Part shown: positions 182 through 18,179 of the stretch, piece by piece
Layout: every line of letters starts with the position of its first letter
Position numbering within the stretch: position 1 is the first letter of the stretch
Virus record (IMG/VR): IMGVR_UViG_3300045988_013921
Span: 1 to 18,179 of that record
DNA length: 18,179 nt
Reading direction: 5' to 3' (one strand)
Origin: a virus
Notes under the pieces: model-generated
What the model was told of the DNA's origin: nothing
Databases searched by the model: none
Seen by the model: only the letters and a program-made list of their open reading frames with translations
Program-made: the position numbers and the translations under genes

Positions 182-192
182 GTTTTTGTTTG

Positions 193-201
193 TGTTATAG
201 T
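193..201 (+). promoter_or_regulatory. Extended -10 promoter (TGTTATAGT) for the left terminal gene
   Basis: TG-N-TATAGT lies 34 nt upstream of the ATG at 235. The equivalent position at the right end carries TGTTATGAT. No good -35 box is present (GCGTGT, inside the 11-bp repeat). Confidence 0.45.
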
Positions 202-234
202 GTGGTTATCAACTTCAAGGGAAAGGAAAATAAA

Positions 235-480: not shown

Positions 481-481
481 T

Positions 482-520
482 AAATAAGCCCCTAGGTGAG
501 TAACCTAGGGGCTTATTTTA
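482..520. terminator. Bidirectional intrinsic terminator between convergent genes
   Basis: 15-bp perfect stem (482-496 pairs with 504-518; core AAGCCCCTAGG/CCTAGGGGCTT) with a 7-nt loop TGAGTAA. T-rich sequence follows the stem on both strands. Confidence 0.85.
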
Positions 521-530
521 TGCTGTCATG

Positions 531-1208: not shown

Positions 1209-1209
1209 G

Positions 1210-1581: not shown

Positions 1582-1593
1582 TACTATTGTCTC

Positions 1594-2661: not shown

Positions 2662-2771
2662 ATGCTCACCTCCATTATGAATAATGGGGGGTATGACGTC
2701 ATGACCACCGCCATACTCCCCGCTATAGTTACGGTCGGCTCAAGGGAAGTCATCACATGCCGACATCAATT

Positions 2772-2780
2772 ATTATACCA
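2772..2780 (-). promoter_or_regulatory. Extended -10 promoter TGGTATAAT upstream of the ATPase-holin-endolysin cassette
   Basis: Exact TGNTATAAT on the minus strand inside the 123-bp intergenic gap, about 110 nt upstream of the ATPase start. Confidence 0.55.
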
Positions 2781-2784
2781 CAAT

Positions 2785-3999: not shown

Positions 4000-4025
4000 A
4001 CACTAAGTATAGTGTATGGCTATTA
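3990..4025 (-). promoter_or_regulatory. 15-bp perfect hairpin covering the start codon of the tail lysin (attenuator or translational occlusion)
   Basis: TAATAGCCATACACT (3990-4004) pairs with AGTGTATGGCTATTA (4011-4025), with a 6-nt loop. On the minus-strand RNA the 3' arm contains the ATG (3997-3999) and is followed by CUUUUAAU. No SD is visible upstream. Confidence 0.6.
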
Positions 4026-4033
4026 GCTATATG

Positions 4034-5491: not shown

Positions 5492-5654
5492 TGGTTATCT
5501 CCTTTGCTTCGCGGATAAGGGTTTCCAGCTGGTTGATTTTTTTATCGAGAATACGCATTGCCTCATTGTACCCATCCCGCAAGTCCATAGGCGTATCGTC
5601 CGCATAGAGGGGTAGTGCGAGGTGTCGTGTCCTCTTGTATGCGTCATTGTTCAT
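5472..5654 (-). CDS. 60-aa protein paralogous to the N-terminal anchor and coiled coil of the fibre
   Basis: LPLYADDTPMDLRDGYNEAMRILDKKINQLE compares with fibre LNLYGDNDPADLRDGYNDSMRTIDDTLEKHLN. It overlaps the upstream gene by 11 nt and the fibre gene by 20 nt. The SD is weak. Confidence 0.5.
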   Translation of the reverse strand: MNNDAYKRTRHLALPLYADDTPMDLRDGYNEAMRILDKKINQLETLIREAKEITNERHLR

Positions 5655-6171
5655 TGTTGTTCGTTCTTTCTCGTGGGGTGACCCTCGGCTCTTCGTTTCC
5701 GAAAATCTCTCGATTGCCTACAACCGCCCATGTGATGCAGTCATGTTGCGCGGCCTGGGCTGCGGTCATGGTTGCCATCTGGTTCACCCGTGCGCCGAAT
5801 ACGGCCAGTTCTCGGTACATGTCACGATCGGTGTTTTTGGAATCCTCATACCGTCCCGTGGTCGGATTATAGGTGATCGCCGACGCCTGATACTGGTCCA
5901 CCTTTTTCGCAAGATCGTCCAAGGCGGTATCAACCGAGGTTTTCCATGCTGCGATTCCGGCGAGAACCTTATTGATGGCTTCGATGTCCGCGTTTTCATC
6001 CTTGGCGAGATTGTCCAACTGCTCGCGCAGTTCGTTCAAGTGGTCGGCCACTTCCTGCACGTATCCGAGTACGGTGAGCGTATCGCGATAGCCAAAGGGC
6101 TGTACGGTGGTGAAATACCGTTGTCGCGGGTCGATATCCAAGGGGGCGGCGCACACGTTGATTCCGTCCAT
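5644..6171 (-). CDS. Putative tail/appendage-associated structural protein with coiled coil (175 aa)
   Basis: ATG at 6171 preceded by GGAGG, which I prefer to the TTG at 6192 used by the track ORF. The heptad-like region is VQEVADHLNELREQLDNLAKDENADIEAINKVL. It lies between the lower collar and the fibre. Confidence 0.5.
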   Translation of the reverse strand: MDGINVCAAPLDIDPRQRYFTTVQPFGYRDTLTVLGYVQEVADHLNELREQLDNLAKDENADIEAINKVLAGIAAWKTSVDTALDDLAKKVDQYQASAITYNPTTGRYEDSKNTDRDMYRELAVFGARVNQMATMTAAQAAQHDCITWAVVGNREIFGNEEPRVTPRERTNNNEQ

Positions 6172-6204
6172 ATATCCTCCAATCTTTCTCAAATCAAGTA
6201 TACT

Positions 6205-7017
6205 CTAATGGCCGAGATTGTAGGCGAGTGACGTGGAATGCAATTGTGGCACGTTGGTCATGTTGTCGCCACTTCCCCACATCCCCATAAACAGGTTTTC
6301 CAACGAATTAATGACCATGAGATCGATATTGAGCATGGTGTTGCGCCAGTCCTGCAACAATTGTGACTGCGATCCGCTGGTTCCGAGTGTGTGCGACATG
6401 GAATTTCCCTTGTCGGAGGAATGCGCATAGTCGGTGTTGCTTGTGCTGGTTGCGGTGGCCGTACTGTCCTGCTGGGTTGCCGTATGCGTGTTGCCGGTTG
6501 AATCCGTCTGACTTGCGGTGGTGGCGTACTTGCGAAAATCGTCGATACGGGTCTGCGGGAACTCGCTGTTAAACGTCATGCTGGAATTGTCGGCGGTAGT
6601 GTCGGACGTGCTGTTGGCGGTGGATGTATTGGATTGTTCCCCTGTGGATTTTCCGCTCGACTCGTTCGTACTGGTCGAGTCCATTTCCTGTCTGATGTCG
6701 GACGTGATGAACGGGTCGAACTTGCGTTGCGCAGATAAATACAGTTGGTTAAAATAGTCCATCTGCTCACGCATAGTACGCCCAAGGTAAAAGATAAACA
6801 TTTGTGGCGTTTCGCTTCCGATTTCCCTAAGTGCGTAGTGGGCTACGATTTTCTCGTTCAATTTCGCACGATAGTTTTCGTCGAAAATAGGATAATATTG
6901 CGAACTTAAATGCAGTTTTTCGTCCGTATTGAAACCACGATCAATCAGATTACCCAACGTCAACGTATAGTCCGCCATACTGTCCTTGACGGCATACATG
7001 CTCAAGTCCTGTGCCAT
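6205..7017 (-). CDS. Lower collar protein (phi29 gp11 analogue)
   Basis: It follows the connector with a TAATG stop/start overlap. The motif YPIFDENYRAKLNEKIVAHYALREIGSETPQMF matches the pattern I recall for picovirus lower collar proteins. The central region is long and rich in S/T/N. Confidence 0.65.
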   Translation of the reverse strand: MAQDLSMYAVKDSMADYTLTLGNLIDRGFNTDEKLHLSSQYYPIFDENYRAKLNEKIVAHYALREIGSETPQMFIFYLGRTMREQMDYFNQLYLSAQRKFDPFITSDIRQEMDSTSTNESSGKSTGEQSNTSTANSTSDTTADNSSMTFNSEFPQTRIDDFRKYATTASQTDSTGNTHTATQQDSTATATSTSNTDYAHSSDKGNSMSHTLGTSGSQSQLLQDWRNTMLNIDLMVINSLENLFMGMWGSGDNMTNVPQLHSTSLAYNLGH

Positions 7018-7958
7018 TATTCTTCCTCCTCTTTGTTTCCGTCAACGTCCAACAACCCGCCGGACGTGGTGTCGTTCCACTCGATGCCGATAGGGTATCC
7101 CGAGTCGGCCATTTGCGGCCACAGTCGGTTAATCGTATTGCACGCCTGCTGCCGTGATTTAAGATAGCTTAGGCGGAAAACGTTCGTACGCGAATTCCCT
7201 GCCGTGACTTCCGATTCAAGTAATCGCTCCTTTTTTTCCGTGGTCGAATTATCGATTCCAAGATAATTAACCAACTCGTTCCAAATTTGCGTTTTCGTCG
7301 TGATGATCTTATCGGCCAAAAATGGGGTGACGTTGGGGAATGTCTGGAACATCCCGGTGATGTCTGCCGAGTCGTATGCGTAAATATAGGGGTCACCGTC
7401 TTCTCGTGCCTTCATAAGGTTTTGGGCGGTGAGTTTGTTGGTTTCGGACGTGGCGATAATCAGCGGTACGCTGATATTGTCCAAGTTGACGTCCAAGGCG
7501 CGGTCTGCGATGGCGAGTCGGGTCGCATAATTCCACATGACGTCAATCATGGTGCACCGCAATTGGTTGTCCCAAATGGGTACGCATTCCTTGCCGCCGA
7601 TCTGCGGATGAGAATAATTCGTGGCAACCGGCTGGAACGACGTCGGATTATTGTAGTTATTGACGCCCCCGATATTGCCTGAAGTGACCATAAAACGGTT
7701 CACGCCCTTACGCTTGTCGGGAAAAAAGAGGGCGAGGCCGTTTTCAAACAAAGTCAATTCCAAATATCTTTCGTCAATGTACGGGGGTAGGTTAATCCAT
7801 TTGAAACGGCTCACGGCCAGCATTTCGATCAATTTCATATACTGGTTGATGCGTAATGATTGCCGCATTTCGGGGAGGTTCAAATTGCCCCACATTGAGC
7901 CTAATACGCTCTGGTTATCCCAGTGCGCGGCCTTGCGCGCATTATTGCGTTTACCCAT
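7017..7958 (-). CDS. Head-tail connector / portal (upper collar), phi29 gp10-like
   Basis: By-eye homology to phi29 gp10: FKWINLPPYIDERYLE, NELVNYLGIDNSTTEKKERLLESEV, YLKSRQQACNTIN. I prefer the ATG at 7958 (AGGA 8 nt upstream) over the GTG at 7964 used by the track. Confidence 0.9.
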   Translation of the reverse strand: MGKRNNARKAAHWDNQSVLGSMWGNLNLPEMRQSLRINQYMKLIEMLAVSRFKWINLPPYIDERYLELTLFENGLALFFPDKRKGVNRFMVTSGNIGGVNNYNNPTSFQPVATNYSHPQIGGKECVPIWDNQLRCTMIDVMWNYATRLAIADRALDVNLDNISVPLIIATSETNKLTAQNLMKAREDGDPYIYAYDSADITGMFQTFPNVTPFLADKIITTKTQIWNELVNYLGIDNSTTEKKERLLESEVTAGNSRTNVFRLSYLKSRQQACNTINRLWPQMADSGYPIGIEWNDTTSGGLLDVDGNKEEEE

Positions 7959-7970
7959 GGTCACCGTCCT

Positions 7971-8008
7971 AAAAATAATGGAGAGAGTTAATATGCTCTC
8001 TCCATTAT
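7971..8008 (-). terminator. Intrinsic terminator/attenuator between the tail-knob and connector genes
   Basis: 13-bp perfect stem (7975-7987 pairs with 7996-8008; ATAATGGAGAGAG/CTCTCTCCATTAT) with an 8-nt loop, followed on the minus strand by UUUUU. A TATAAT hexamer (8004-8009, minus strand) is embedded in the upstream arm. Confidence 0.6.
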
Positions 8009-8014
8009 ATCCAA

Positions 8015-10246
8015 TCAGTACGAGATACCGGCTAACGGCACATTGTCCGCATAGTCGGTGACACCGATTTTGTCCGGGTCAGTCCACACCGTCACGCCAC
8101 TTTCGAAAATGCCCTTGACAGTCAATCGGTACTCTTCGGGACACGTCGAGCTACGCACATACAATTCGTGTAGTTTCCAATAAGTAAAATTGCTCATTGC
8201 CATGAGATTCTCCGGCAAGCGCATAAACCTTTGTACATAGTATCCATATCTTAGCCACACTTCGCCGATGGCTTGCATGGCGGCGGGTGGTATCTGTCGA
8301 AAACGCACCATGACACCGATCAATCCGTTCGCCAGGTTAAAGGCGTCACCACCTAATGCGCCGGACGTGGTAGGGGGTACAGTCTGAGTTTGCTGCACTT
8401 GGGCGTTGATGCCGGCGATCGTGTTTTCGTAATCGCCTTGCGCGGTGGCCTGCGCAAGCTGCCTGTTCATATCGGCCAGCTGCATGGCCTGCTGATTGGA
8501 CAAATTGGTTTGCGCAAGCGAGTAGGCATTGGCTTGCGAGGTGGTTGCGGCGTTGGTGGTAAAAGTGTTCGAAAGCGCTTGCGAATTGGACGAAACACTA
8601 TTGTCATAACTTTGTTGGTTTGCCCATGCGCCGATGGAGGTTCCTGCGATAGCGCCCACCGCACCCCCAACATTGCCGGTTGCGAGCGAGCCAATGGCGT
8701 TCGCGGCACCCGAGCCTACCGTATTGATCTGATTCATCCTGTTATTAAAACTTAGGTTTTTCAAGGTCAAGTCGGAAGACATTTGAGCGCTTTGATTGTT
8801 GATCGCCATCATCGCGTTGCGGTTCGCGGTGCCGAGCCTGTTCTGCTCGCTCGCATACTGCGTGCCGACCTGTGCCTGAGCGTAGGCATTGTTGATGCCC
8901 ATCTGGGTTTTCTGATACCCCCAATCTGCGCTCTGCTGAGCATAGGCACGTGTGTAGGCACTATTCGCAAGCGCTAGGGCACTGCCGTTGTTGACGGCCA
9001 TAAACGTTGGAAAATTGGTGATGCCAAATGATGCGTTCAGCATTTCGCCCGTATCAATCGGCAATCCCTTACCATCCGGCAACGGTTGACGGTCACCGAG
9101 ATTGCCCGCATGATACCCTCTCGCGTAAAAATTCAAACGTGGAGAGGGGGGCGCATAATTCCACGTCTCCCTGATGATCAAATCTTCGGACGGTATCTGC
9201 TCAGGCTCGTAGGTTATCACCGTGCCGTTGAGACACGAGCATTCGACATACGCGTAGGGGGCAGTAAGGAATTTCTTCAGATACCGGTATCGTTCCGGTA
9301 GCTGGAACATGTCGCGGAAATTTTTGAGGTTGATAATATCATCATACCTGTCCTGACTGTCTGTGGCACTGGCTCCCATTTTCCAACAATTGCCGATAAA
9401 ATGCGCGTCCTTACCGAAAAGTTCCGTGACTTTCGCACCCCAGCGGGTAAGTCTGTCAGGCAGTGACGGTACCGCGAAAATTCCGCAAATGCCCTGTGTT
9501 ACCCATGGTGAGGTTGCTCCACCGTCGAAAAACCTGCCAATGTCCAGTGGATTGTCGAGGTAGTAGACTTCCGTTCCGTTTGCCTGTGACTCAAAAAAGC
9601 TGCCGCTGGCAGACTGGATAGTGGGGTTGTCTTTGGTGCCAGAGTCCACAGATAGGGAGGTGGTCGAAAGTATGATGATACCAAATTTCAAATTATGACC
9701 GTCCACTACGTCCATAAGTGGCTTCCACGATTCGTTTGTGAGTACGGTGCATTTGCCCGTGTCGAGTCCTTCGGGCAGATCGAGATAGGTTTTGCCCCAG
9801 TCCTTCCATGCGTTTTCGTTGGCAACCCCAACATGTCCCCTTTCAACATAGGCGTTGCCCAGCTGAATATCATGCTGAAAACTTTGCCACACGTCCAATT
9901 GGATGTTGAGCTGTGTCGTGTTGGCGTTGACATAGTCGCAGGTTTGCACGAAATAATACCAACTGCGGGGGGTATCAAAATCGTAGTCGTTTGTGGCGAT
10001 CAGATAATTATATTGCGACGCTTGGGCGAACGGTACCGGCAATCGTACCGGCAGACCGTACTTGGCCATCGTGCAGTCGGTAAATTCGATGCCATCCAAA
10101 CGGTCGAAATACTCTTTTTGAGACTGTCTATCCCATTTGACAATATCCCTATACCCCATGTCCCACGGGACATTGCACAACTTGAATCGCGTGTTTGGCG
10201 TCCATTTCGCGTATGAAAAATTAATCGGTAGGTCGTTTGCGCTCAT
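8015..10246 (-). CDS. Tail knob protein, phi29 gp9-like
   Basis: The N-terminal block WYYFVQTCDYVNANTTQLNIQLDVWQSF and the C-terminal block YGYYVQRF...GVTVWTDPDKIG align by eye with phi29 gp9. The internal Gly/Ala-rich hydrophobic stretch GSGAANAIGSLATGNVGGAVGAIAGTSIGAW matches the position of the gp9 membrane-active loop. Confidence 0.88.
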   Translation of the reverse strand: MSANDLPINFSYAKWTPNTRFKLCNVPWDMGYRDIVKWDRQSQKEYFDRLDGIEFTDCTMAKYGLPVRLPVPFAQASQYNYLIATNDYDFDTPRSWYYFVQTCDYVNANTTQLNIQLDVWQSFQHDIQLGNAYVERGHVGVANENAWKDWGKTYLDLPEGLDTGKCTVLTNESWKPLMDVVDGHNLKFGIIILSTTSLSVDSGTKDNPTIQSASGSFFESQANGTEVYYLDNPLDIGRFFDGGATSPWVTQGICGIFAVPSLPDRLTRWGAKVTELFGKDAHFIGNCWKMGASATDSQDRYDDIINLKNFRDMFQLPERYRYLKKFLTAPYAYVECSCLNGTVITYEPEQIPSEDLIIRETWNYAPPSPRLNFYARGYHAGNLGDRQPLPDGKGLPIDTGEMLNASFGITNFPTFMAVNNGSALALANSAYTRAYAQQSADWGYQKTQMGINNAYAQAQVGTQYASEQNRLGTANRNAMMAINNQSAQMSSDLTLKNLSFNNRMNQINTVGSGAANAIGSLATGNVGGAVGAIAGTSIGAWANQQSYDNSVSSNSQALSNTFTTNAATTSQANAYSLAQTNLSNQQAMQLADMNRQLAQATAQGDYENTIAGINAQVQQTQTVPPTTSGALGGDAFNLANGLIGVMVRFRQIPPAAMQAIGEVWLRYGYYVQRFMRLPENLMAMSNFTYWKLHELYVRSSTCPEEYRLTVKGIFESGVTVWTDPDKIGVTDYADNVPLAGISY

Positions 10247-10257
10247 AAAATCCTCCT

Positions 10258-10298
10258 AAAAAACAATAGGTGTGGATAAAAGTCTATCCACACCTATT
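10258..10298 (-). terminator. Intrinsic terminator after the major capsid gene
   Basis: 14-bp perfect stem (10265-10278 pairs with 10285-10298; AATAGGTGTGGATA/TATCCACACCTATT) with a 6-nt loop. On the minus strand it is followed by GUUUUUU and then the AGGAGG SD of the tail-knob gene. Confidence 0.8.
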
Positions 10299-10318
10299 TT
10301 ATCTGCTATCGCCTAATG

Positions 10319-12061
10319 TCAGGCGGAGGCGGCGGCGGTGGCGACGGTGACGACGGCCTGCCCTTCGGCCCCCGCAAACTTTGCGACAACATGAGCCTGT
10401 CCTGCGCCTTTGCCGGTAACCAGTCCCGTCTGATCGACAGTGGCGTATGAGGTGTCGGACTTCCACAGCTGCCACGTGGCAAGATTGCTTACATCCTGCG
10501 TCGAGCCGTCCGTCGTGACTGCCTGCGCGGTCAGCTTGACGGACTCGCCAACCTTGATGGATTTCGCACCATCGACGCGCAGGCCGGACAGTGCTCCGAT
10601 CTTGATGCCACCGACCCACGTTCCAACAACCGGAACGGACAATGCTGCGGAAACGGTCTGGTCGATCTCGGGGTGGGCTGGGTTGATATAGGTTGCCTGA
10701 GCAGTGACCTTAAGCGTTTCGGCGGTTTCGTCGAGGCCGCAACGCAGAATACCCCCGTTGTCGATCGAGGTGAACTGAGAGGTTGCACCCTCAACCTTGT
10801 ATTCGATGCCGACCGGCTGGAAGCTTGCAGCATCCTTGTTGGCGCTTGTGATTTCGGATTCGACTTGTACCAAGTCACCGCGAGACACGTTCTCGGGGGA
10901 AACCGATGGCTGACCATATTTCATGACGCGCAAAGTGAACTTCGGCGTGGAAGTGGTGAGCGTATCCGGCAACGTCACGGACTCGGAGGAACCTTCGCCC
11001 GTCCAAAACAGCACGGCATTCGCAAACGGGTTAGGGGTGATGGACCCGCGGTGCTTATAGAAAATGTTCCTCGTGCCGTCAATCGGATTCACGGGGGAAT
11101 TCGTAGTTTCCAACGTTTCATCCCAGCAGAAGAAGAAGTCTTCCGTGGTCAGCACGGCCTGAACCTTGCCACCGGCACCGCCGATACCGAACATACCCTC
11201 CGGAATCGGAATGATACGATACGGCACATTGACCTTATCGATGTTAAACGCGGCGGCAAGGGCTTCGACGTTGAGCGCTGCGATCACCTGTGGCGTGGCG
11301 AACAGAATCGCCTCGGAATCTCGCCATGGGGTGACCCAGCTCATGGCGTTATAGCGTGGCATGGCCGACATTGGGCTAGCCTTGAGCTCGTTCGCGGTCT
11401 GCTGGATAAGTCGCAAAAGATTCTTGGCGTCCGCTTCAGTGGAGTCAGCCGCGCCAACGTCCTTGGTGTGGACTCGATAGAAACCGCCCTTGCGCGCGTA
11501 CTCGGCGAAGCACTGTGTCTTCATCAGGTACATATCATTACGGTCGGACAAGATCGGCGCGTTCATGATTTCCGCGATATAATCCGCCATGCCCGACTCA
11601 CCGTCAAAAGCGGTCAACAGCGCGTCTTCCGGGATGGTGACCGGATAGTAGTGGTCGAACGTTAGGGGGTGGAATACGGAAGCGGTAGGCAGCGAATAAC
11701 GCCCGTAAACGTCGTCGCCCAAGTATTCCTTGTTGAAATTGCGGGTGCGTGCCTTGACTAGGCCAACCGCGGCCTGTTCGTACGTGCTGCCGTAACGCTT
11801 CAACGTGCGTGGGGAGCCGATAAGCTTGAGTGGGTCATCCCAATCGGCGTGCTGGACGTACAAGCCGATAAGACGCTGAATCAATACCCCCGTGAATTCA
11901 TCGCGCAAGTACGGGAAATTACGCATGGTGTCCACGGCATTGCGGATATTGCCCTGTGTCGCAGACGGGATGCGTACCTGAAACTGGGGTGAGGTTGCGG
12001 AACGGACGGCATTGAAAATCTCAACGTCACCCTTACCGGCCAATGGTCGAATATTAGACAT
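10319..12061 (-). CDS. Major capsid protein, phi29 gp8-like, with C-terminal Ig-like (Big_2-type) domain(s)
   Basis: The N-terminus IFNAVRSATSPQF...IPSATQGNIRNAV...LIQRLIGL aligns by eye with phi29 gp8. The C-terminus VGESVKLTAQAVTTDGSTQDVSNLATW...VDQTGLVTGKGAGQAHVVAKF is a typical Big_2 pattern, and a second Ig-like segment precedes it. Confidence 0.9.
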   Translation of the reverse strand: MSNIRPLAGKGDVEIFNAVRSATSPQFQVRIPSATQGNIRNAVDTMRNFPYLRDEFTGVLIQRLIGLYVQHADWDDPLKLIGSPRTLKRYGSTYEQAAVGLVKARTRNFNKEYLGDDVYGRYSLPTASVFHPLTFDHYYPVTIPEDALLTAFDGESGMADYIAEIMNAPILSDRNDMYLMKTQCFAEYARKGGFYRVHTKDVGAADSTEADAKNLLRLIQQTANELKASPMSAMPRYNAMSWVTPWRDSEAILFATPQVIAALNVEALAAAFNIDKVNVPYRIIPIPEGMFGIGGAGGKVQAVLTTEDFFFCWDETLETTNSPVNPIDGTRNIFYKHRGSITPNPFANAVLFWTGEGSSESVTLPDTLTTSTPKFTLRVMKYGQPSVSPENVSRGDLVQVESEITSANKDAASFQPVGIEYKVEGATSQFTSIDNGGILRCGLDETAETLKVTAQATYINPAHPEIDQTVSAALSVPVVGTWVGGIKIGALSGLRVDGAKSIKVGESVKLTAQAVTTDGSTQDVSNLATWQLWKSDTSYATVDQTGLVTGKGAGQAHVVAKFAGAEGQAVVTVATAAASA

Positions 12062-12076
12062 TACTATTCCTTTCGT

Positions 12077-12358
12077 TTAGTCGAACAAATCTTCGATGGA
12101 CTCTTGCGTTTCGTCACCGTCACCGTCATTGTCGGTTAGGGCAGGTTCGGTGTATCCGAGCGTGTCCATCATGGCTTTCAATGCGGCCAATTCCTTTTCG
12201 ATCGAGTCAAGTCGCGCGCTCACGTCCGGTTCGGACGGTTCCGGTTCCGACTCAGGTTCCTTCGGCTTGATTTCGTCATCGACGGTTTCAGTCTGCCTCT
12301 CTTCTTCGGTAGGCGGCGGGGTGGTGTTTTCGTCGCTCTCATTGTTTGGGTCTGCCAT
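12077..12358 (-). CDS. Putative scaffolding protein (93 aa, very acidic)
   Basis: It lies immediately upstream of the capsid gene, as phi29 gene 7 does. The composition is E/D/P-rich with a helical segment LDSIEKELAALKAMMDTL. An AGGAG SD is present. Confidence 0.6.
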   Translation of the reverse strand: MADPNNESDENTTPPPTEEERQTETVDDEIKPKEPESEPEPSEPDVSARLDSIEKELAALKAMMDTLGYTEPALTDNDGDGDETQESIEDLFD

Positions 12359-12393
12359 GCAAGCTCCTATCTATCGGCAATGTTTCCACCAAA

Positions 12394-12402
12394 ATTATAT
12401 CA
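12394..12402 (-). promoter_or_regulatory. Late promoter, extended -10 TGATATAAT
   Basis: Exact TGNTATAAT on the minus strand about 36 nt upstream of the scaffold ATG and directly after the 12411-12444 terminator. Confidence 0.65.
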
Positions 12403-12410
12403 TGCGACGG

Positions 12411-12444
12411 GAGAAATAAAATGACCCTCCAATCACGGAGGGTC
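12411..12444 (-). terminator. Intrinsic terminator ending the early operon / small-RNA unit
   Basis: 8-bp stem GACCCTCC/GGAGGGTC (12423-12430 pairs with 12437-12444) with a 6-nt loop, followed on the minus strand by AUUUUAUUUCUC. Confidence 0.78.
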
Positions 12445-12581
12445 TAAATCGTCCTATCGGAGCGCAAAAGTGATGATCGTAGGGCACTACCGCCACGATA
12501 GTGATTCCATGGTTGGCGGCATTCTCAGCCGTGGCGGTCCAGCCTATGTTGCTCCCAGTCGAAAATCGACGCTCACAAGAC
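12415..12581 (-). ncRNA. Candidate ~165-nt structured small RNA (pRNA-like packaging RNA candidate)
   Basis: Non-coding interval bracketed by its own TGCTATAAT box (12588-12596) and the terminator (12411-12444). Internal helices are visible: 12489-12497 pairs with 12530-12538 (9 bp), and there is a hairpin at 12558-12570. It lies downstream of TP and pol in the same orientation, like phi29 pRNA. The ends are estimates. Confidence 0.4.
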
Positions 12582-12587
12582 ACACCT

Positions 12588-12596
12588 ATTATAGCA
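12588..12596 (-). promoter_or_regulatory. Extended -10 promoter TGCTATAAT overlapping the polymerase stop codon
   Basis: Exact TGNTATAAT on the minus strand (ATG CTA TAA T, the last two pol codons plus stop). The predicted start is a G near 12581. Confidence 0.5.
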
Positions 12597-14040
12597 TGAC
12601 CATTGTCCCGCAATCGTCCATGACTTGCACGCCATGTCGAAACTTTTCGTAAGGAATGGGCTGCGTAAATTGGCTTCCGGCCATGCAAATATCAACCTCA
12701 CCATCATCCTTCCACCCTTGATATCGGTTCATGCCTAAAATGGTGAGCTTTTCGTATCGTGCTGCGATTTTCCACTTGCCCAGCTCGGTAGGGTGGATTT
12801 CGCATGAGTCCACCGGCCCCCAGCCGGATAGGATGCACCCATCCGTGTTCGCATACAGCAATCGGCCGGCATTGGCGTGACAGACGGTCATAAGCTTTTT
12901 TCTTGCGTAGGCGTTGACCCATACGGGCACGGGGAGAAAATCGGTTTTCAAATTCGATTCTTCGCGTCGTGCGATATCCCAATCGAGGGTTACACCGTCT
13001 TTTGACATGGGGAGCATGACGGCACCTTTGGGCAGGCTCGCCATTTTCCCCACAAGCGCGTTCATGACCAATTTCGCCATTTGCCGCCTTTCGCCCGTCG
13101 CCTTCTGCTTCAACTCCCCCCATTCATCGACGAACGAACGGAAAAACCCCTTGCTTTGCCGGAACTTCCACCCCCTTACGTGCCTGTATATGCTTACCTC
13201 ATAGTTTTCGTATAACAATTGCTGGTCAATGTCGGTTAAGACTCTTGTGACATACCCTCTTGTGCCGGTAAGTCGATTGAGTCCATATACGCTACGATTG
13301 TCCAACAGAAAAGGGTATCCGTTTGGTTTGAGTTCCGCGCGAAACGTTAATTCGTCGCAATGCAATGGCATGTCATCATCCTGCACGTATTTGCCCTCAT
13401 ATGATTCCGGCAATCCCCACGGCAACCATTCGTCCCGCAATATGGACGGGTACATGCTATTGCAGTCAACGTCAATAGCCTTGCCATACGCCCCCTCCTT
13501 GGCTATCATGAAGCCACCGATATAGGCCTCATGCAATGACTTTTTCGTGTCCGGTTCGAGCTGAGGGAATTTGTCGTAATACCATTTCCACTCGCCGGAC
13601 GCAAACGCCTCCATGCTCGCACCGCCGGCAGTGATCCTGCACAAGCCGTGATTATCGTACTCGCTTAAAATGTTGAGCAGTTGAGTATCAGTCATGGTAA
13701 GCTTGCAGTTTTCGCGTAGCAGATTCGATATGTCGAAAAAGCGTGCGGAATTTTCACGGTCGATACGCACCGTAAAGCTAAAAAACTTACCCTTTTGGGA
13801 AACGATGGCATCCCAGCTCAAATTCGCATTATGTTCATTATGGGGGAGGAAATGTACGACATGTGCGATAAAATGGTCTAAAATATCAGTGTTAGTCATG
13901 TAGACGGTGAGTTTGCCGCCCGTCATGATGGACGCCAAAAGACGGTTGGGTGCGATAACGCCACGAAGTACGGTGCCGTCCACGAAGCGTATGACGTTAT
14001 CCGCGCACCATAATCCCACCCTATTATCACTCACTGTCAT
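12589..14040 (-). CDS. Protein-primed family-B DNA polymerase (phi29 gp2-like), short form (483 aa)
   Basis: Extensive by-eye alignment to phi29 pol: ITAGG, AYIGGF, DCNSMYPS (motif A), LPWGLPESYEGKYVQDDDMPLH (TPR1 start), KLVMNALVGK (motif B), LLYANTDG (motif C). An upstream in-frame stop rules out a longer N-terminus. Confidence 0.95.
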   Translation of the reverse strand: MTVSDNRVGLWCADNVIRFVDGTVLRGVIAPNRLLASIMTGGKLTVYMTNTDILDHFIAHVVHFLPHNEHNANLSWDAIVSQKGKFFSFTVRIDRENSARFFDISNLLRENCKLTMTDTQLLNILSEYDNHGLCRITAGGASMEAFASGEWKWYYDKFPQLEPDTKKSLHEAYIGGFMIAKEGAYGKAIDVDCNSMYPSILRDEWLPWGLPESYEGKYVQDDDMPLHCDELTFRAELKPNGYPFLLDNRSVYGLNRLTGTRGYVTRVLTDIDQQLLYENYEVSIYRHVRGWKFRQSKGFFRSFVDEWGELKQKATGERRQMAKLVMNALVGKMASLPKGAVMLPMSKDGVTLDWDIARREESNLKTDFLPVPVWVNAYARKKLMTVCHANAGRLLYANTDGCILSGWGPVDSCEIHPTELGKWKIAARYEKLTILGMNRYQGWKDDGEVDICMAGSQFTQPIPYEKFRHGVQVMDDCGTMVML

Positions 14041-14068
14041 AGTATATAACTTCCCTTGTTGTTGACCA

Positions 14069-15127
14069 CTACTTTTTCAGCGCGCCCGCTTCTGCCAGCC
14101 ACCGGTCAAATTGCCGTCGTGATCGCCAATAACCCTCACTGTTACCCTTGAAAATCGAGGCGAAACCGTGTCGAACGGGGTCATACATCGTCCAATCAAA
14201 AACGATGCGGGGGGCGTCTGTCTGTTCGATAAACGCGCGTTTCTGTGCTGCGGATAGTTGACGGAATCGTTTCAATCGTTTCGAACCGAGCGAGGTGGCA
14301 AGAATCTTTTCGAACACCTCATAGCGTCCGCGCGACATGTAAGATGGCCATTCGTGCTCACCGTACAAGTCTTTGCTCTTTTTCCCCGTCCTCTGTTTTG
14401 TAGACTTGCGTTTCTGTTCGGTGCGCAGTCCTAAGATTTCGGCTGCGTCATGCATTTGCTCAAGCAGCTCGTTACGGTGACCGCTCTCCAATTGGGAGCG
14501 CACGAACGCTTCGTCACTCAATACGTTTGTCATCCGCAGAAAATCCGTGAGTTTTGATGGGATGATCTGAGTTCGTCCGAAACCCTCGCCGGTAGTGCCG
14601 GTGATTTCTGCCACGCGCTGATCGTATACGCTGCGACGTGGCATTGCCTGCGCCTTGTTCCATTCGTTGATTTTCCGTCTTGCCGCATTGATTTTCCGCT
14701 GCTGCTGCCGTAACAGTTTACGTCGTTTCGCCACGGGTTCCGCTTCGATCTGAGCATTCGTGATGGGCGCGCGTTGGGCGAACATAATGTCTTTTTTCGT
14801 CGGCTTTTCCACAGCGGTGGCATGGTATGGCGTGCTTTTCGCTTCCGCTATGGCCTGTTTCTTCTGCCGATCCCACTCTTTGCCCAAGGTTTTTGCGATA
14901 TTGACCAATTGCTTGTCGGCGGTTTTTGCGAGATTTGTATGGGAGTATGACCCAAGCTTGCTAATGTTGCGGGCTGCGCGTGCTTCCGCTGCCCGACGTG
15001 CCTTGACGTGCTTACGTGCATTGCCGTCCGCCTTGATGGCTACCGTGCCAATACCGGTATTGTTGGTGCGAGGGGTATAATATTGACTTGCGACTGCTCG
15101 GGATGATTTTCTTTTCTTACGTGACAT
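14069..15127 (-). CDS. Putative terminal protein (352 aa, highly basic)
   Basis: Assigned by position only. It lies immediately upstream of the protein-primed polymerase, as phi29 gene 3 does. It is K/R-rich, including an N-terminal MSRKKRKSSR. I recognised no sequence similarity. Confidence 0.55.
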   Translation of the reverse strand: MSRKKRKSSRAVASQYYTPRTNNTGIGTVAIKADGNARKHVKARRAAEARAARNISKLGSYSHTNLAKTADKQLVNIAKTLGKEWDRQKKQAIAEAKSTPYHATAVEKPTKKDIMFAQRAPITNAQIEAEPVAKRRKLLRQQQRKINAARRKINEWNKAQAMPRRSVYDQRVAEITGTTGEGFGRTQIIPSKLTDFLRMTNVLSDEAFVRSQLESGHRNELLEQMHDAAEILGLRTEQKRKSTKQRTGKKSKDLYGEHEWPSYMSRGRYEVFEKILATSLGSKRLKRFRQLSAAQKRAFIEQTDAPRIVFDWTMYDPVRHGFASIFKGNSEGYWRSRRQFDRWLAEAGALKK

Positions 15128-15146
15128 GTGCAGTCCTTAAGATGGC

Positions 15147-15172
15147 GAGAGCACCCAAGATTGGGTGCTCTC
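15147..15172 (-). promoter_or_regulatory. Stable leader hairpin upstream of the terminal-protein gene
   Basis: 11-bp stem GAGAGCACCCA/TGGGTGCTCTC (15147-15157 pairs with 15162-15172) with a 4-nt loop. No U-tract follows on either strand. It lies between the 15195 promoter and the AAGGAC SD of the TP gene. Confidence 0.5.
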
Positions 15173-15194
15173 TATGAACGAACGCTATTTAACG

Positions 15195-15203
15195 ATTATA
15201 GCA
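15195..15203 (-). promoter_or_regulatory. Extended -10 promoter TGCTATAAT upstream of the TP-pol genes
   Basis: Exact TGNTATAAT on the minus strand in the 79-bp SSB-TP intergenic region. Confidence 0.55.
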
Positions 15204-15206
15204 AGG

Positions 15207-15641
15207 TCACTTCGTCTCTTCGTCCACCGGCTCGATGCTGAAAAACTTGAAGCCGCGGCGGGAACGACGTTCCACTACCTTGATGGATAGCGGCGCGTCC
15301 CAAGTGTTCGGCGTGCCGAAGATACCGAACATGGTGTTCAGTCCGGCAGCGAGAGTGGGGGAGGTGGCCGCATACGCCTTGTTATCGTCGGTGACGATGA
15401 TGACGCGCACGGTATTGGAGATTTCGCCCGTCTGATCATCCGTCACCTGTACAGCCTGTGCGACTGCGTTCACCATGTTCAGGGTTTCGTTCAAATGTTC
15501 GTCAAGCTTTTCGGCGTTCTGCAATGCGGAGTAGAGCTTGATCTTGCCTTCGCGGGTGGAAGTGTCGATGAAGTGCTGGACAGTGCCGAGTTCGGTGGAC
15601 TCGGTATTGAATGCTACGAGTGCGGTGTTGGTGTTTTCCAT
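15207..15641 (-). CDS. Putative single-stranded DNA-binding protein (144 aa)
   Basis: It occupies the position of phi29 gene 5. The pattern VRVIIVTDDNKAYAATSPTLAAGLNTMFGIFGTPNTW..PLSIKVVERRSRRG resembles phage-type SSBs of Gram-positive phages as I recall them. This is not verified. Confidence 0.45.
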   Translation of the reverse strand: MENTNTALVAFNTESTELGTVQHFIDTSTREGKIKLYSALQNAEKLDEHLNETLNMVNAVAQAVQVTDDQTGEISNTVRVIIVTDDNKAYAATSPTLAAGLNTMFGIFGTPNTWDAPLSIKVVERRSRRGFKFFSIEPVDEETK

Positions 15642-15700
15642 AATATTACCTTCCCTTTATACTGTTGTTGTTATTTTGTTTAGGCTTATGCCTAAAATCT

Positions 15701-15709
15701 TTTATATCA
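15701..15709 (-). promoter_or_regulatory. Extended -10-like box TGATATAAA upstream of the SSB gene
   Basis: TG-N-TATAAA on the minus strand overlapping the stop codon of 15707..16021, about 60 nt upstream of the SSB ATG. Confidence 0.4.
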
Positions 15710-16021
15710 CATACCGTCATTATTTTCAATGTCGGCGTGTCGTTTTGTATGTTCTTCGGGATTCCATTCTTTCGGCTCCCCGAAAGTCGCATACTTATAA
15801 AAAGTTTCCTCATTCATGGAAACTTTTTGCGAAAAAATATTAATGGAACGTGGGATGAAATTCGGAAACAATTTCTTCGCACGAATCGAATACGCGCGCT
15901 CATCCTTAAGTCGCCCATCAATGACATGCTCGGCTTCCATAAAATCACCGTCCACCAATTCCATACCCTTGAGCACGGCATACACTCTCGTGCGAAAAAT
16001 ATCGGTTTTGGTTCTAGCCAT
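15707..16021 (-). CDS. Hypothetical early protein (104 aa); possible phi29 p6-like dsDNA-binding protein by size and position
   Basis: A GGGAGG SD is present. The gene lies immediately upstream of the SSB gene, as phi29 gene 6 does. It is similar in length, has an acidic C-terminus, and contains a TRVYAV..ELVDGDF segment reminiscent of my recollection of the p6 N-terminus. This is a weak assignment. Confidence 0.6.
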   Translation of the reverse strand: MARTKTDIFRTRVYAVLKGMELVDGDFMEAEHVIDGRLKDERAYSIRAKKLFPNFIPRSINIFSQKVSMNEETFYKYATFGEPKEWNPEEHTKRHADIENNDGM

Positions 16022-16026
16022 CTGTA

Positions 16027-16545
16027 TTACCTCCCTTGTAGCAAGATTTTCTGCAATTCAATGTCATTATACCGTGTCGTGTCCAGTCTGTCAAAATTTT
16101 TAAACACCGCAATAATAAGATTCTGAGCTTGTGGACTATCAAAAACCACACAGCAATCGAACGACGTGCACCCTTTGACAGCACAGACAGCACACCATGC
16201 GATCAGATTAGGCGGGTTGATGTGACCGTCCAAGCATTCCACGTCATACGTGCAGGACAGGGCTGCGGAAAACCCGTCCGATATGGTCATGCTCCCACAA
16301 ATCTGCGATACCGTTATCACCGCTTGCGTAAACCATGGGCTAGCCCCCTCACGCCACAGTTCGCATAGCATATTTACGGCACGGCAGCATGTCTCAAAAT
16401 CGCCATACCCCTTATCATAGCGTTTCAAATTCAGGTCACGTTTCCGTCCTTTCGTAGCCTTGACAATACGTGGCGATTCCATGATCGCATCATCAAATTT
16501 CCTCATGCGATAAATCGGTGTCCTATCATTGCCACGATTAAACAT
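16027..16545 (-). CDS. Hypothetical Cys-rich early protein (172 aa, 13 Cys)
   Basis: A GGAAAGG SD lies 7 nt upstream of the ATG, and the gene is tightly packed with its neighbours. I recognised no family. Confidence 0.65.
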   Translation of the reverse strand: MFNRGNDRTPIYRMRKFDDAIMESPRIVKATKGRKRDLNLKRYDKGYGDFETCCRAVNMLCELWREGASPWFTQAVITVSQICGSMTISDGFSAALSCTYDVECLDGHINPPNLIAWCAVCAVKGCTSFDCCVVFDSPQAQNLIIAVFKNFDRLDTTRYNDIELQKILLQGR

Positions 16546-16714
16546 AATAGCGCCTTTCCACCTTAAAATATGCGATATTCATCGTATGCGAGGGCACCGC
16601 AGCCCACTTGCGCACAAGCTCGGCGGCTTTATCGTACGAAGTGGCATACCCCACTTCGATAGGAGGCTTATCGCCATGCCTGAGATATGCCAGTGCGACA
16701 AAGGTTTCATACAC
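16538..16714 (-). CDS. Unlisted small ORF (58 aa, GTG start): hypothetical early protein
   Basis: Hand translation gives (V/M)YETFVALAYLRHGDKPPIEVGYATSYDKAAELVRKWAAVPSHTMNIAYFKVERRYYV. A TGGAG SD lies 7 nt upstream of the GTG. It fills the gap exactly and overlaps the next gene by 8 nt. It is below the 60-aa cutoff of the track. Confidence 0.45.
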   Translation of the reverse strand: MYETFVALAYLRHGDKPPIEVGYATSYDKAAELVRKWAAVPSHTMNIAYFKVERRYYV

Positions 16715-16716
16715 GA

Positions 16717-16911
16717 TTAAAACTCCAATTCCTCAGATTCAGCGCCAAATTGCCACATATCATGCCATAGTTGGAGGTTGGGACACCGTTTCGGCATTCC
16801 TCGCCTGTGCCTTACGCCCGCCCAAAACGCTCTCAGCCGCCAATACGTGTCGGCATAAAGACAATTCCTGCAAGTCCACGAATGCAGAAACCCAAGAAAA
16901 TACACGATCAA
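16717..16911 (-). CDS. Hypothetical small W/C/R-rich early protein (62-64 aa)
   Basis: It fits exactly between its neighbours. The start is either the TTG at 16911, overlapping the upstream TGA, or more likely the GTG at 16905 with AGGGA 6 nt upstream. It contains CxxC and has an acidic C-terminus. Confidence 0.45.
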   Translation of the reverse strand: MIVYFLGFLHSWTCRNCLYADTYWRLRAFWAGVRHRRGMPKRCPNLQLWHDMWQFGAESEELEF

Positions 16912-17153
16912 TCCCTATCCAATAATGGTGTGCGCGCGATATCGATAGCATCCAACATAAGATCAACCACCTGACTACCATCACCCGCATCATATGCACA
17001 CAAGGCGGTAGCATTGCAAACCCCGGCTAAAGTGCGGAATCGGACGGCATACCTCAACTCATACCTTTGACCATGCGGACAATACCACAACCCCACATTA
17101 CCCCCCACAAACTGCGAGGAAAACGTAGCAACCTTCATATCATGTTCAGCCAT
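16908..17153 (-). CDS. Hypothetical early protein (81 aa)
   Basis: ATG with a GAAAGG SD 8 nt upstream, and a normal-looking composition. Confidence 0.65.
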   Translation of the reverse strand: MAEHDMKVATFSSQFVGGNVGLWYCPHGQRYELRYAVRFRTLAGVCNATALCAYDAGDGSQVVDLMLDAIDIARTPLLDRD

Positions 17154-17154
17154 T

Positions 17155-17322
17155 TCAAAAACCTTTCACCACGAAAACCAAAACCATAGCCACGCTTACC
17201 GCAAGCATGACCAAGAAACAAAACGTGTCACGCCAATCACGCGGCAGTTCGCAAAACACCGAAGCAGCCATCGTGAGAAACAGTACGGAAAGTATGCAGA
17301 CGGCAACAATCATGCCAACCAT
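17155..17322 (-). CDS. Unlisted small membrane protein (55 aa, two predicted TM helices)
   Basis: Hand translation gives MVGMIVAVCILSVLFLTMAASVFCELPRDWRDTFCFLVMLAVSVAMVLVFVVKGF. The start ATG overlaps the upstream stop (TAATG). Its stop lies 1 nt before the next ATG. It is below the track cutoff. Confidence 0.6.
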   Translation of the reverse strand: MVGMIVAVCILSVLFLTMAASVFCELPRDWRDTFCFLVMLAVSVAMVLVFVVKGF

Positions 17323-17329
17323 TATACCA
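17321..17329 (-). promoter_or_regulatory. TGGTATAAT box at a gene junction (possible internal early promoter)
   Basis: Exact TGNTATAAT on the minus strand. However, it is partly dictated by the TAATG stop/start overlap, and a transcript starting here would miss the ATG of the 55-aa ORF. Confidence 0.3.
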
Positions 17330-17552
17330 GCACCACCTTAACCATACCTACCATAGTACTATCCATGTCAAACGTAGCATTATCAATATCCACGCTTACA
17401 TCCACACCGGCATAGGCGCTGCGGATATGAGACAGTACACCGTCCAGCGACGCTTTCAACGACGTCGTATGAAACATTCCGCTAGGCTTCACACAATCAG
17501 GTAGAATCTCAAACACCCGAAACCCATCATTAGCGATGATAAAATACCACAT
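17322..17552 (-). CDS. Hypothetical small acidic early protein (76 aa)
   Basis: An AAGGAG SD lies 7 nt upstream of the ATG. I count 9 D/E against 5 K/R. Confidence 0.65.
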   Translation of the reverse strand: MWYFIIANDGFRVFEILPDCVKPSGMFHTTSLKASLDGVLSHIRSAYAGVDVSVDIDNATFDMDSTMVGMVKVVLV

Positions 17553-17566
17553 GTCAATACTCCTTT

Positions 17567-17947
17567 TCAGCGATCAAACGACTCGAAACTCTTCAGCAAC
17601 TCTTCACGCATGGGGTCAGTCAATGTCACGTCATACCCCTTAGACTCACCGCAACGCAAACGCTCAGCACTAACAAAACGCCAAGAACGCTTCTCATACG
17701 CAAGCGTGAAATGAGTGCTCATAGGAACCCCACGGTAGGCGTTCGGAAAGTCCTGAGAGTTCAAATCAACATTGACAGTTAGACCCTCCATGCTTTTCTT
17801 GGTGCAACCGTCGAACTTCCGTTCGAGAATATAGACAGCATCATACACGTCATCAATATCAACGATACGAGTACGGGCAAAATGGTTAGCAGCATCAAGC
17901 TGAGACTTAACCTCAGTGTCATGCTTGTGATTAAGAATGATATTCAT
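17567..17947 (-). CDS. Hypothetical early protein (126 aa), the right-terminal gene
   Basis: Internal ATG at 17947 of track ORF 17567..18160, preceded by AAGGAAAGGAAA. This is the same SD/leader as the left terminal gene. The upstream extension is poly-T ITR sequence. Confidence 0.65.
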   Translation of the reverse strand: MNIILNHKHDTEVKSQLDAANHFARTRIVDIDDVYDAVYILERKFDGCTKKSMEGLTVNVDLNSQDFPNAYRGVPMSTHFTLAYEKRSWRFVSAERLRCGESKGYDVTLTDPMREELLKSFESFDR

Positions 17948-17978
17948 TTTATTTCCTTTCCTTGTGGTTGATATTTTT

Positions 17979-17987
17979 ATCATAACA
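17979..17987 (-). promoter_or_regulatory. Extended -10 promoter (TGTTATGAT) for the right-end early genes
   Basis: Mirror position of 193-201 in the degenerate ITR extension, 32 nt upstream of the ATG at 17947. Confidence 0.45.
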
Positions 17988-17998
17988 TAAACAAAACT

Positions 17999-18028
17999 AC
18001 GACACGCCCGAAAACAAACGACACGCCC
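17999..18028 (-). repeat. Mirror copies of the 11-bp direct repeats (ACGACACGCCC on plus strand at 17999-18009 and 18018-18028)
   Basis: Part of the perfect ITR, with the same geometry relative to the right-end promoters. Confidence 0.8.
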
Positions 18029-18041
18029 AAATAAAAAAAAC

Positions 18042-18070
18042 TTGACAAACTGGCGTGAAAAAAATATAAT
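18042..18070 (+). promoter_or_regulatory. Perfect consensus sigma70-type promoter firing outward toward base 18179
   Basis: TTGACA (18042-18047), 17-nt spacer AACTGGCGTGAAAAAAA, then TATAAT (18065-18070) on the plus strand. This is the ITR mirror of 110-138. Confidence 0.55.
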
Positions 18071-18179
18071 AGAACAGAAAACACAACAAAGCGACAACGA
18101 CGTCACATAACAAAAAAAAATAATATACAAATAAAAAAAACCACAAGGGAAAATCTTCACACAAATCCATACACCTCCC

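Follow-up and report, generated by a model that had tools for sequence, protein, structure and literature searches.

The question raised by this locus is what is encoded by a 230-bp gap between the DNA polymerase gene (pol) and a scaffold-like gene in a viral genome of 18,179 bp (IMG/VR record IMGVR_UViG_3300045988_013921, positions 1 to 18,179; this whole stretch is referred to below as the window). The window is the complete genome of a small (∼18-kb) phi29-like Bifidobacterium podophage in which nearly all genes lie on the minus strand, and the gap is its largest internal non-coding stretch. An initial annotation of the window had proposed that the gap encodes a candidate packaging RNA (pRNA). 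The gap was found to contain an element that has its own transcription signals, a fold supported by covariation, and a sequence and genomic context conserved among relatives. As judged from sequence comparison, it is likely that this element represents a new lineage of pRNA-like packaging RNA, which would be the functional counterpart of the prohead RNA of phi29.

Transcription signals and conservation of the polymerase-scaffold gap

Read on the minus strand, the gap contains, in order, an extended -10 promoter (TGCTATAAT), ∼170 nt of sequence, a hairpin with a tail, a second extended -10 promoter (TGATATAAT), a ribosome-binding site and the start of the scaffold-like open reading frame (ORF). 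The hairpin has nine pairs, six of them G-C, and a 4-nt loop, and it ranks first in the window's list of terminator-like sites; the terminator region (12444-12414) reads GACCCTCC-GTGATT-GGAGGGTC, followed by ATTTTATTT. Both the promoter overlapping the pol stop codon and the bracket formed by terminator and late promoter were thus found where the initial annotation had placed them. The motif TGNTATRRT occurs seven times in the window compared with 1.95 copies expected, a number reached by 3 of 200 shuffles, and all copies are oriented with the genes and located at gene boundaries; this motif is therefore regarded as the phage's usual promoter type. The five copies outside the gap (193-201 on the plus strand; 2772-2780, 15195-15203, 17321-17329 and 17979-17987 on the minus strand) are probably the remaining promoters of the phage, to judge from their sequence, and one of them lies directly upstream of the packaging ATPase gene.

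The nearest relatives of the window are Bifidobacterium phage BP1 (87% identity across 85% of the window), an unannotated human faecal contig and the Bifidobacterium dentium phages BD811P1-3 (∼76%). The same unannotated gap, of ∼228 bp, is present in all five GenBank relatives, and the element is annotated in none of the five annotated GenBank records examined. An IMG/VR scan anchored on the polymerase yielded 80 further loci (pol 74-91% identical), every one of which contains the element. The alignment used below (A3) comprises 81 distinct versions; a tighter IMG/VR pattern scan contributed 7 extra variants, without new bulge or loop states, so that at least 88 variants of the element are available in total. 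A metagenome search with the pattern CTGGG-N(55-85)-GCCCTACGA proved too loose, with 0 matches to covariance model R1 among the 80 loci listed. No intermediate lineages were present in the phage collection, in which pol identity falls from at least 76% to ∼31%.

The RNA promoter reads TGYTATRAT in 81 of 81 relatives, and 6-7 nt separate its end from the first base of the helix that closes the fold described below (helix A). Conservation of the RNA sequence starts at this first helix base, after the variable 6-7-nt spacer. The second extended -10 element is likewise found downstream of the terminator in all 81. Within the clade the pol stop codon, TAA or TGA, varies in step with a -10 hexamer of TATAAT or TATGAT (12588-12593), and in the BadAztec phages of honeybee-gut Bifidobacterium the pol stop is TAG within TATAGT (about 12858-12866 of locus L086). 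Because the stop codon lies inside the -10 hexamer and varies with it, these six bases face a double constraint, and this holds in two distant lineages.

No reading frame is conserved across the element, none being open in more than 18 of the 81 sequences, and its length varies between 165 and 173 nt without a multiple-of-three pattern. On these two counts, the absence of a conserved frame and of codon periodicity in the lengths, a coding explanation for the gap was ruled out. Identity to the window is 73-92% for the RNA, 73-87% for the last 600 nt of pol and 54-87% for the adjacent leader that follows the terminator. The stretch is therefore non-coding yet conserved about as well as the neighboring genes. 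With its signals and layout kept in every relative and no frame conserved, it appears to be a discrete non-coding transcription unit, as initially proposed.

Covariation, helices and a bulge-loop contact

The fold was obtained with RNAalifold and refined by hand; positions in the RNA are given as 12583 minus the window coordinate. Controls consisted of the same fold with pairing partners slid by 1-3 columns and of 500 shuffles. In the 81 aligned sequences, 95.3% of cells are paired compared with 37-49% in the slid controls, and 17 pairs are compensatory, with both sides changed, compared with 3-8 when slid. None of the 500 shuffles reached the observed values. The many G-U pairs identify the folded strand as the minus strand, which is the strand transcribed. 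Covariance model R1 scores the predicted RNA at 186.8 bits over 12414-12582. A weak R1 match at 15793-15909 (minus strand; 11 bits, E = 0.86) is driven by an early-region terminator-like hairpin and is probably just another terminator.

Helix A joins the two ends of the RNA in five paired segments. Its GAGCG/CGCUC pairing is replaced by GAGCA/UGCUC in 6 sequences and a C-G pair by U-A in 5, and 86-100% of cells are paired across the helix. The next element, an arm termed C/E-like here, consists of 3 bp, a 1-nt bulge, 6 bp, a 7-nt bulge on the 5' side, a 4-bp apical stem and a 7-nt loop (UGAGAAU), and its 13-nt 3' strand runs without interruption. At the 3-bp base of the arm 94% of cells pair, and a U:A pair is replaced by C:G in 13 sequences. 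A 4-nt linker leads to a D-like hairpin, in which 99.5-99.8% of cells are paired and 4-5 of 6-8 pairs are compensatory. The terminator stem is also kept with compensatory change (CCCUCC/GGAGGG to CCCCGC/GCGGGG). While the stems covary, the loops and internal loops (UGAGAAU, CGACUGGG and GCCCUACGA) are highly conserved.

Complementarity links the 5'-side bulge of the C/E-like arm with the D-like hairpin loop. Between the bulge core CGCC (12536-12533) and the loop core GGCG (12494-12491), 99.7% of cells are paired, and one pair occurs as G-C in 66 sequences, G-U in 8 and A-U in 4. In a divergent sequence (L079) the register is shifted, but bulge and loop are still complementary (ACCAC and GUGGU). 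When bulges and loops of like size are randomized, four or more contiguous Watson-Crick pairs form with a frequency of ∼0.05 and five or more with a frequency of ∼0.008.

These data contradict most of the specific helices of the initial annotation, which had joined the same two regions in a 9-bp helix (12489-12497 with 12530-12538). The central 4-5 pairs of that helix are conserved, but uncompensated breaks of its outer pairs occur in 13, 9 and 4 sequences. Because the central core is kept and the flanks are not, the pairing is better read as a short bulge-loop (kissing) contact than as a long intramolecular helix, which would moreover compete with better supported helices. An alternative pairing of CCGCCA with TGGCGG does not hold up, since the second CCGCCA copy lies within covarying helices. 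The palindrome CCAUGG, previously suggested as an intermolecular contact, is present in only 13 of 81 sequences. A 5-bp hairpin at 12558-12570 is possible in itself, but its outer pair fails in 8 sequences, in which the long-range partner compensates.

Comparison with Bacillus pRNA and with other actinobacterial phages

The Bacillus family taken for comparison comprised the pRNAs of phi29, B103, M2/Nf, SF5 and GA-1. In these RNAs the CE loop and the D loop pair between molecules over 2-5 bp, and the ring that these contacts build sits on the prohead (PMC5066667, PMC4201828). The genes for Bacillus pRNA are situated where the early gene region ends (PMC6266182); in B103 the pRNA (172-287) is encoded downstream of pol and oriented like it. 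The window element was correctly recognized by the initial annotation as occupying the same relative position, at the end of the terminal protein/pol early block and in the same orientation. Like pRNA, the element belongs to a small protein-primed podophage whose genome has inverted terminal repeats and encodes both a gp10-type connector and a gp16-type ATPase, and its predicted transcript of ∼170 nt (174 nt in phi29) would have its own promoter.

The resemblance extends to the dimensions of the fold. In the consensus of RF00044, the Bacillus pRNA family of Rfam, the 13-bp arm is made up of 5 bp, a 1-nt bulge, 4 bp, a 9-nt 5' bulge, a 4-bp stem and a 6-nt loop, and is followed by a 3-nt linker and a 6-bp hairpin that abuts helix A. 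Common to this consensus and the window RNA are helix A closing the junction, a 13-bp arm whose 3' strand is uninterrupted, a distance of 9 bp between the junction and the 5' bulge (7 nt in the window RNA, 9 nt in RF00044), a 4-bp apical stem with a loop of 6-7 nt, a 6-bp D stem and 0 nt between D and A. The 4-bp complementarity between bulge and D-like loop falls inside the 2-5-bp range of pRNAs (PMC4201828). A 3' hairpin follows a short single-stranded linker in both (PMC5066667), although that of the window is a plain 9-bp terminator and the correspondence is loose. A covarying fold that shares the helix order and the bulge and loop layout of RF00044 thus lends support to the original designation as a candidate pRNA.

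There are also differences. Helix A of the window RNA has larger internal loops than that of pRNA and no obvious CCA bulge, and its kissing core is all G-C (CGCC/GGCG) compared with AACC/GGUU in Bacillus pRNA. The window gene lies mid-genome, among genes nearly all in one direction and directly before the late promoter, whereas Bacillus pRNA is encoded near the genome end. The host of the window phage is an actinobacterium, unlike the hosts of the Bacillus pRNA phages. A parallel for a pRNA outside Bacillus is the putative pRNA of Streptococcus phage Cp-1, which a Bacillus-trained covariance model was unable to recognize reliably (PMC6266182) and which is the only non-Bacillus precedent that we met (PMC6266182). 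Cp-1 resembles the window phage in being a phi29-like podophage with a non-Bacillus candidate pRNA; its host is a Firmicute, and the likeness drawn here is by description only.

Possible counterparts of the window RNA are present in other phi29-like phages of actinobacteria. In BadAztec1 and BadAargau2, the honeybee-gut Bifidobacterium phages mentioned above, the ATPase is 44% identical and a 178-nt gap occurs at the same place. BadAztec1 has an extended -10 element, TGCTATAGT, at the position equivalent to the window RNA promoter, and the BadAztec/BadAargau2 element has a covarying closing helix with the common GAGCG/CGCUC core and a covarying 3' hairpin. Its interior does not vary between the two sequences at hand, and there a possible C/E-like arm, GGUG-[CC]-GG-[AAACC]-CGUA-UUAAGU-UACG-CC-CACC, competes with a hairpin predicted by RNAalifold. 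Model R1 found no match in BadAztec, in Curtobacterium phages or in MT835826. In this last record (MT835826.1, an unannotated phi29-like human faecal contig; L089) a Pistol self-cleaving ribozyme was detected at 16259-16334 on the minus strand with 55 bits (gathering score 34.5).

A second group of RNAs was found in Arthrobacter phages Anjali, Swim, Tillums and Mendel and in Curtobacterium phages Fairywren, Reje, Prophecy, Ayka, Ellison17 and Mantle. Here, the element lies in gaps of 180-300 nt directly upstream of the scaffold-like gene, between the replication and capsid genes, and folds into a closing helix, an arm with a 5' bulge below a G/C-rich hairpin with a UGAA-type loop, a next hairpin and a terminator-like hairpin. 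Model R2, made from the four Arthrobacter sequences, recovers the complete element from each of the six Curtobacterium phages (22-46 bits, E = 1e-3 to 5e-10), and the Arthrobacter and Curtobacterium RNAs therefore constitute one family. In their joint alignment 92.8% of cells are paired, and 27 of 42 pairs are compensatory compared with 5-11 in slid controls. The bulge-loop contact recurs in this family with an invariant G-C/C-G core and flanks of A:U, U:A and C:G on one side and U:A and A:U on the other, with some mismatches. As independent evidence, this family points to a co-evolving bulge-loop contact on such a scaffold as a feature under selection in actinobacterial phi29-like phages.

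The junction strands of the Arthrobacter RNAs (0, 3 and 0 nt) are nearly those of phi29 (1, 3 and 0). Curtobacterium members carry an extra small hairpin that yields a four-way junction, unlike the window RNA, and the kissing core of the family is NGCN/NGCN rather than the CGCC/GGCG of the window. Also unlike the window, a small gene lies between pol and the RNA, encoding a ribbon-helix-helix protein in Arthrobacter phages and a hypothetical protein in Curtobacterium phages. No clear dedicated promoter was identified for the Arthrobacter/Curtobacterium RNA; the occurrence of TGCTATAGT in the Fairywren gap was ruled out as a conserved promoter, as it belongs to a hairpin stem. An Rfam search of Arthrobacter phage Anjali gave nothing relevant, and no description of the family was found in the papers searched. 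The annotated coding sequence starts at L331:366 in Reje and L338:193 in Tillums fall inside or just 3' of the element, in the terminator-like region, and may be mis-called.

The coordinates of the RNA, its signals and the surrounding genes are collected in Table 1. Gene identities were assigned with PHROG profiles, which confirmed the gp10 and gp16 homologues named by the initial annotation. The window ATPase is 28.5% identical to the phi29 gene-16 protein with 94% of its length aligned (E = 4e-35). The connector has a basic N terminus (MGKRNNARK). A basic RKR sequence at the N terminus of phi29 gp10 is implicated in pRNA binding, and the connector start lends weak support to RNA docking.

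Table 1. Positions of the RNA element, its signals, neighboring genes and corresponding elements in other phages (window coordinates unless a locus is named)
Feature	Position	Strand	Remarks
RNA promoter, extended -10 TGCTATAAT	12588-12596	minus	pol stop codon TAA inside the -10 hexamer
Predicted RNA, ∼168-171 nt	12414-12581	minus	predicted +1 near G12581; 3' end in U-tract 12422-12414
Helix A (end-to-end), 5' strand	12554-12581, RNA 2-29	minus	contains invariant CGACUGGG
C/E-like arm	12508-12548, RNA 35-75	minus	covariation, 4 + 1 compensatory pairs
5'-side bulge ACCGCCA, CE-loop-like	12532-12538	minus	core CGCC 12536-12533 complementary to D-like loop
D-like hairpin, 6-bp stem, 7-nt loop CGUGGCG	12485-12503, RNA 80-98	minus	loop core GGCG 12494-12491
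Helix A, 3' strand	12451-12484, RNA 99-132	minus	contains invariant GCCCUACGA; 0 nt from D-like hairpin
3' hairpin, intrinsic terminator	12423-12444	minus	6-nt linker before; AUUUUAUUU (12422-12414) after; would take the place of pRNA domain II
Second extended -10 promoter TGATATAAT	12394-12402	minus	for scaffold-like ORF and capsid genes
Scaffold-like acidic ORF, 93 aa	12077-12358	minus	ribosome-binding site precedes start
DNA polymerase, protein-primed type	12589-14040	minus	last early-block gene, upstream of RNA; phrog_1907, E = 3.6e-41; annotated DNA polymerase in BP1 and BD811P1-3
Upper collar connector, gp10-like	7017-7964	minus	phrog_2038, E = 1.5e-54
gp16-type DNA-packaging ATPase, 355 aa	1594-2661	minus	phrog_2150, E = 4.7e-59
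Major head protein	10319-12061		PHROG profile
Tail knob, gp9-type	8015-10246		PHROG profile
Lower collar	6205-7017		PHROG profile
Endolysin	2785-3999		PHROG profile
BadAztec1/BadAargau2 element	L086:12695-12852; L091:301-495	minus (L086)	
Arthrobacter/Curtobacterium family loci	L336:4988-5103, L337-L339, L087:4080-4199, L331-L335		

Inverted terminal repeats of ∼180-200 bp are present at the window ends (about 1-190 and 17990-18179). Each contains a perfect TTGACA-17-TATAAT promoter aimed outward to the genome end (110-138 on the minus strand and 18042-18070 on the plus strand), which could be an origin or a transcription-activation element. The run-off RNA of ∼100 nt would be A-rich and unstructured (-4.8 kcal/mol), and a competing pRNA near the genome ends was ruled out on these grounds. 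Elsewhere in the window there is no Rfam-detectable pRNA and no other structured non-coding gap. Two perfect, long terminator-like hairpins of 16 and 15 pairs on the minus strand, at 3990-4025 after a 485-residue ORF and at 10265-10298 after the tail-knob gene, split the late region into separate transcription units.

Proposed function of the RNA and competing explanations

By analogy with phi29, we infer that the window RNA would form a ring, bind the connector and the ATPase and act in packaging. According to this model, the RNA would be transcribed from its own extended -10 promoter, with a predicted +1 at the first base of helix A, and would end at the intrinsic terminator. Several copies would then join head to tail through intermolecular bulge-loop (CE/D-type) pairing of CGCC with GGCG, and the resulting ring may assemble on the connector while the prohead is empty. 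The distal part of helix A would recruit the gp16-type ATPase, which would then translocate the terminal-protein-capped genome, and the RNA would depart before tail attachment. The 3' hairpin would act as terminator and occupy the place of pRNA domain II.

A number of observations weigh against a pRNA assignment. At both gathering and permissive thresholds, Rfam searches of the gap and of the whole window returned nothing, riboswitch and leader families included, and RF00044 in particular stayed without a match both within 12250-12750 (E ≤ 10) and across the window (E ≤ 1). The scan with this model had been one of the checks proposed initially, and its outcome was negative, in keeping with the accompanying caution that pRNAs are hard to recognize by sequence. 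The element is therefore not a member of RF00044. That the search works is shown by the B103 pRNA used as a positive control, which scored 50.2 bits (E = 5e-10), below the RF00044 gathering score of 100 bits. Conversely, model R1 does not detect B103 pRNA, and model R2 has no match in the window pol-scaffold gap, its only window matches being weak (E > 3) and elsewhere. As the covariance models do not cross-detect, homology of the window RNA with Bacillus pRNA, and with the Arthrobacter/Curtobacterium family, is unproven. This failure is not disqualifying, because Bacillus pRNAs themselves share only ∼12% sequence similarity while keeping their fold (PMC5066667).

Other difficulties concern the structure. 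Measured against shuffled sequences, another of the checks proposed at the outset, the fold of the single window sequence is only marginally more stable and not clearly so (z = -1.76; 7 of 200). One genome alone would thus not have settled the structure, the evidence for which is the between-genome comparison that had also been proposed. Helix A has large internal loops, with a local hairpin as a possible alternative, and the junction strands of 5, 4 and 0 nt depart from the 1, 3 and 0 nt of phi29. Covariation of the bulge-loop contact within the window's clade rests on one pair, and the same loop bases could close the hairpin to a UGG triloop, with G-C replaced by A-U in 2 sequences. A second copy of CGCC inside the first arm also matches the loop, and the pairing may be intermolecular or intramolecular.

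If the gap were a passive 3' untranslated region of pol, followed by an ordinary terminator and promoter spacer, its folded body would have no function. The marginal stability of the single-sequence fold and the ordinary nature of the terminator and promoter would suit this explanation. It is nevertheless very improbable, and is effectively refuted by the covariation, that is, by 17 compensatory pairs and 95% pairing compared with 3-8 and 37-49% in the slid controls; moreover, the loops are invariant while the stems covary, and conservation equals that of the coding flanks whereas the adjacent leader decays faster. The main rival is that the element is a cis-acting leader or attenuator of the late operon, either riboswitch-like or protein-binding, in which an intramolecular bulge-loop pseudoknot would sense a phage protein or metabolite, set read-through past the terminator and so time the early-to-late switch. 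In purine riboswitches, a three-way junction is formed by a closing helix and arms that pair with each other. The window RNA is an architectural look-alike of such aptamers, since a closing helix, two interacting arms and a downstream intrinsic terminator are typical riboswitch anatomy too. The element always lies directly upstream of scaffold-like or capsid genes, in the window's clade as in BadAztec, Curtobacterium and Arthrobacter phages, and in BadAztec and Curtobacterium phages no clear promoter is apparent between the 3' hairpin and the scaffold gene. In 81 of 81 window-clade genomes, however, a separate extended -10 promoter follows the terminator, so that the late genes are independent of read-through. 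No convincing antiterminator was found, the best competing duplex having -10.1 kcal/mol compared with -16.4 for the terminator stem; Rfam yields no riboswitch or leader family; and one of the interacting elements is an internal bulge where riboswitch aptamers have a hairpin loop. A cis-acting leader would also leave the detailed match to the pRNA arm dimensions unexplained, and we regard it as improbable.

It is also conceivable, though unlikely, that the element is a trans-acting structured RNA with another job. It might, for example, regulate as a small RNA, serve in anti-defence, or engage replication or transcription factors as a protein sponge or scaffold. On this view the bulge and loop would make a tertiary contact within one molecule, and the likeness to pRNA would be convergent or coincidental. 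To judge by its signals, the element is selected, structured and independently transcribed, and nothing in the sequence ties it physically to the prohead; the highly conserved loops and internal loops would suit any specific protein partner, and covariance-model similarity to Bacillus pRNA is absent. Set against this, the element is found in every genome of the clade at a fixed core position and has analogues in three further phi29-like lineages, a universality that argues for a core rather than an accessory function. A gp16-type ATPase is encoded, the window contains no other pRNA candidate and the arm dimensions match those of pRNA. In the only systems studied, gp16-type ATPases work with pRNA (PMC11476376, PMC3362512). 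A pRNA-like role in packaging therefore remains the reading that we prefer.

A broader proposal, on which we are evenly divided, is that pRNA is a general and ancient part of gp16-type motors and that structurally equivalent ring-forming RNAs are encoded upstream of the scaffold or capsid genes in actinobacterial phi29-like phages. It would span the Bifidobacterium clade of the window, probably BadAztec, and the Arthrobacter/Curtobacterium family, whose sequences would have moved beyond covariance-model detection with the arm, bulge and hairpin geometry and the co-evolving kissing contact kept. Full-text literature searches turned up no published account of pRNA from phages of Bifidobacterium, Curtobacterium or Arthrobacter. 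To our knowledge, pRNA is the only RNA integral to a viral DNA-packaging motor. It is also the only identified natural RNA that multimerizes by kissing between identical copies (PMC4201828), and a 2024 review describes it as unique, "according to current knowledge", to phi29 and related Bacillus phages (PMC11476376).

Experiments on the window RNA are feasible because cultured phage-host pairs exist, namely BP1 with Bifidobacterium pseudocatenulatum U19 and BD811P1-3 with B. dentium DA811. If the packaging role is correct, the element would close a gap in how Bifidobacterium phage genomes from the human gut are annotated and would provide new G-C-rich scaffolds, combining a three-way junction with a kissing loop, for RNA nanotechnology. 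It would also account for the docking of gp16-type ATPases on the connector in phi29-like phages without an annotated pRNA, of which there are many. An unusual RNA motor part may then extend beyond Bacillus phages, and the origin of pRNA, as a relic of the RNA world or as a late replacement for a lost terminase domain, would become directly testable.

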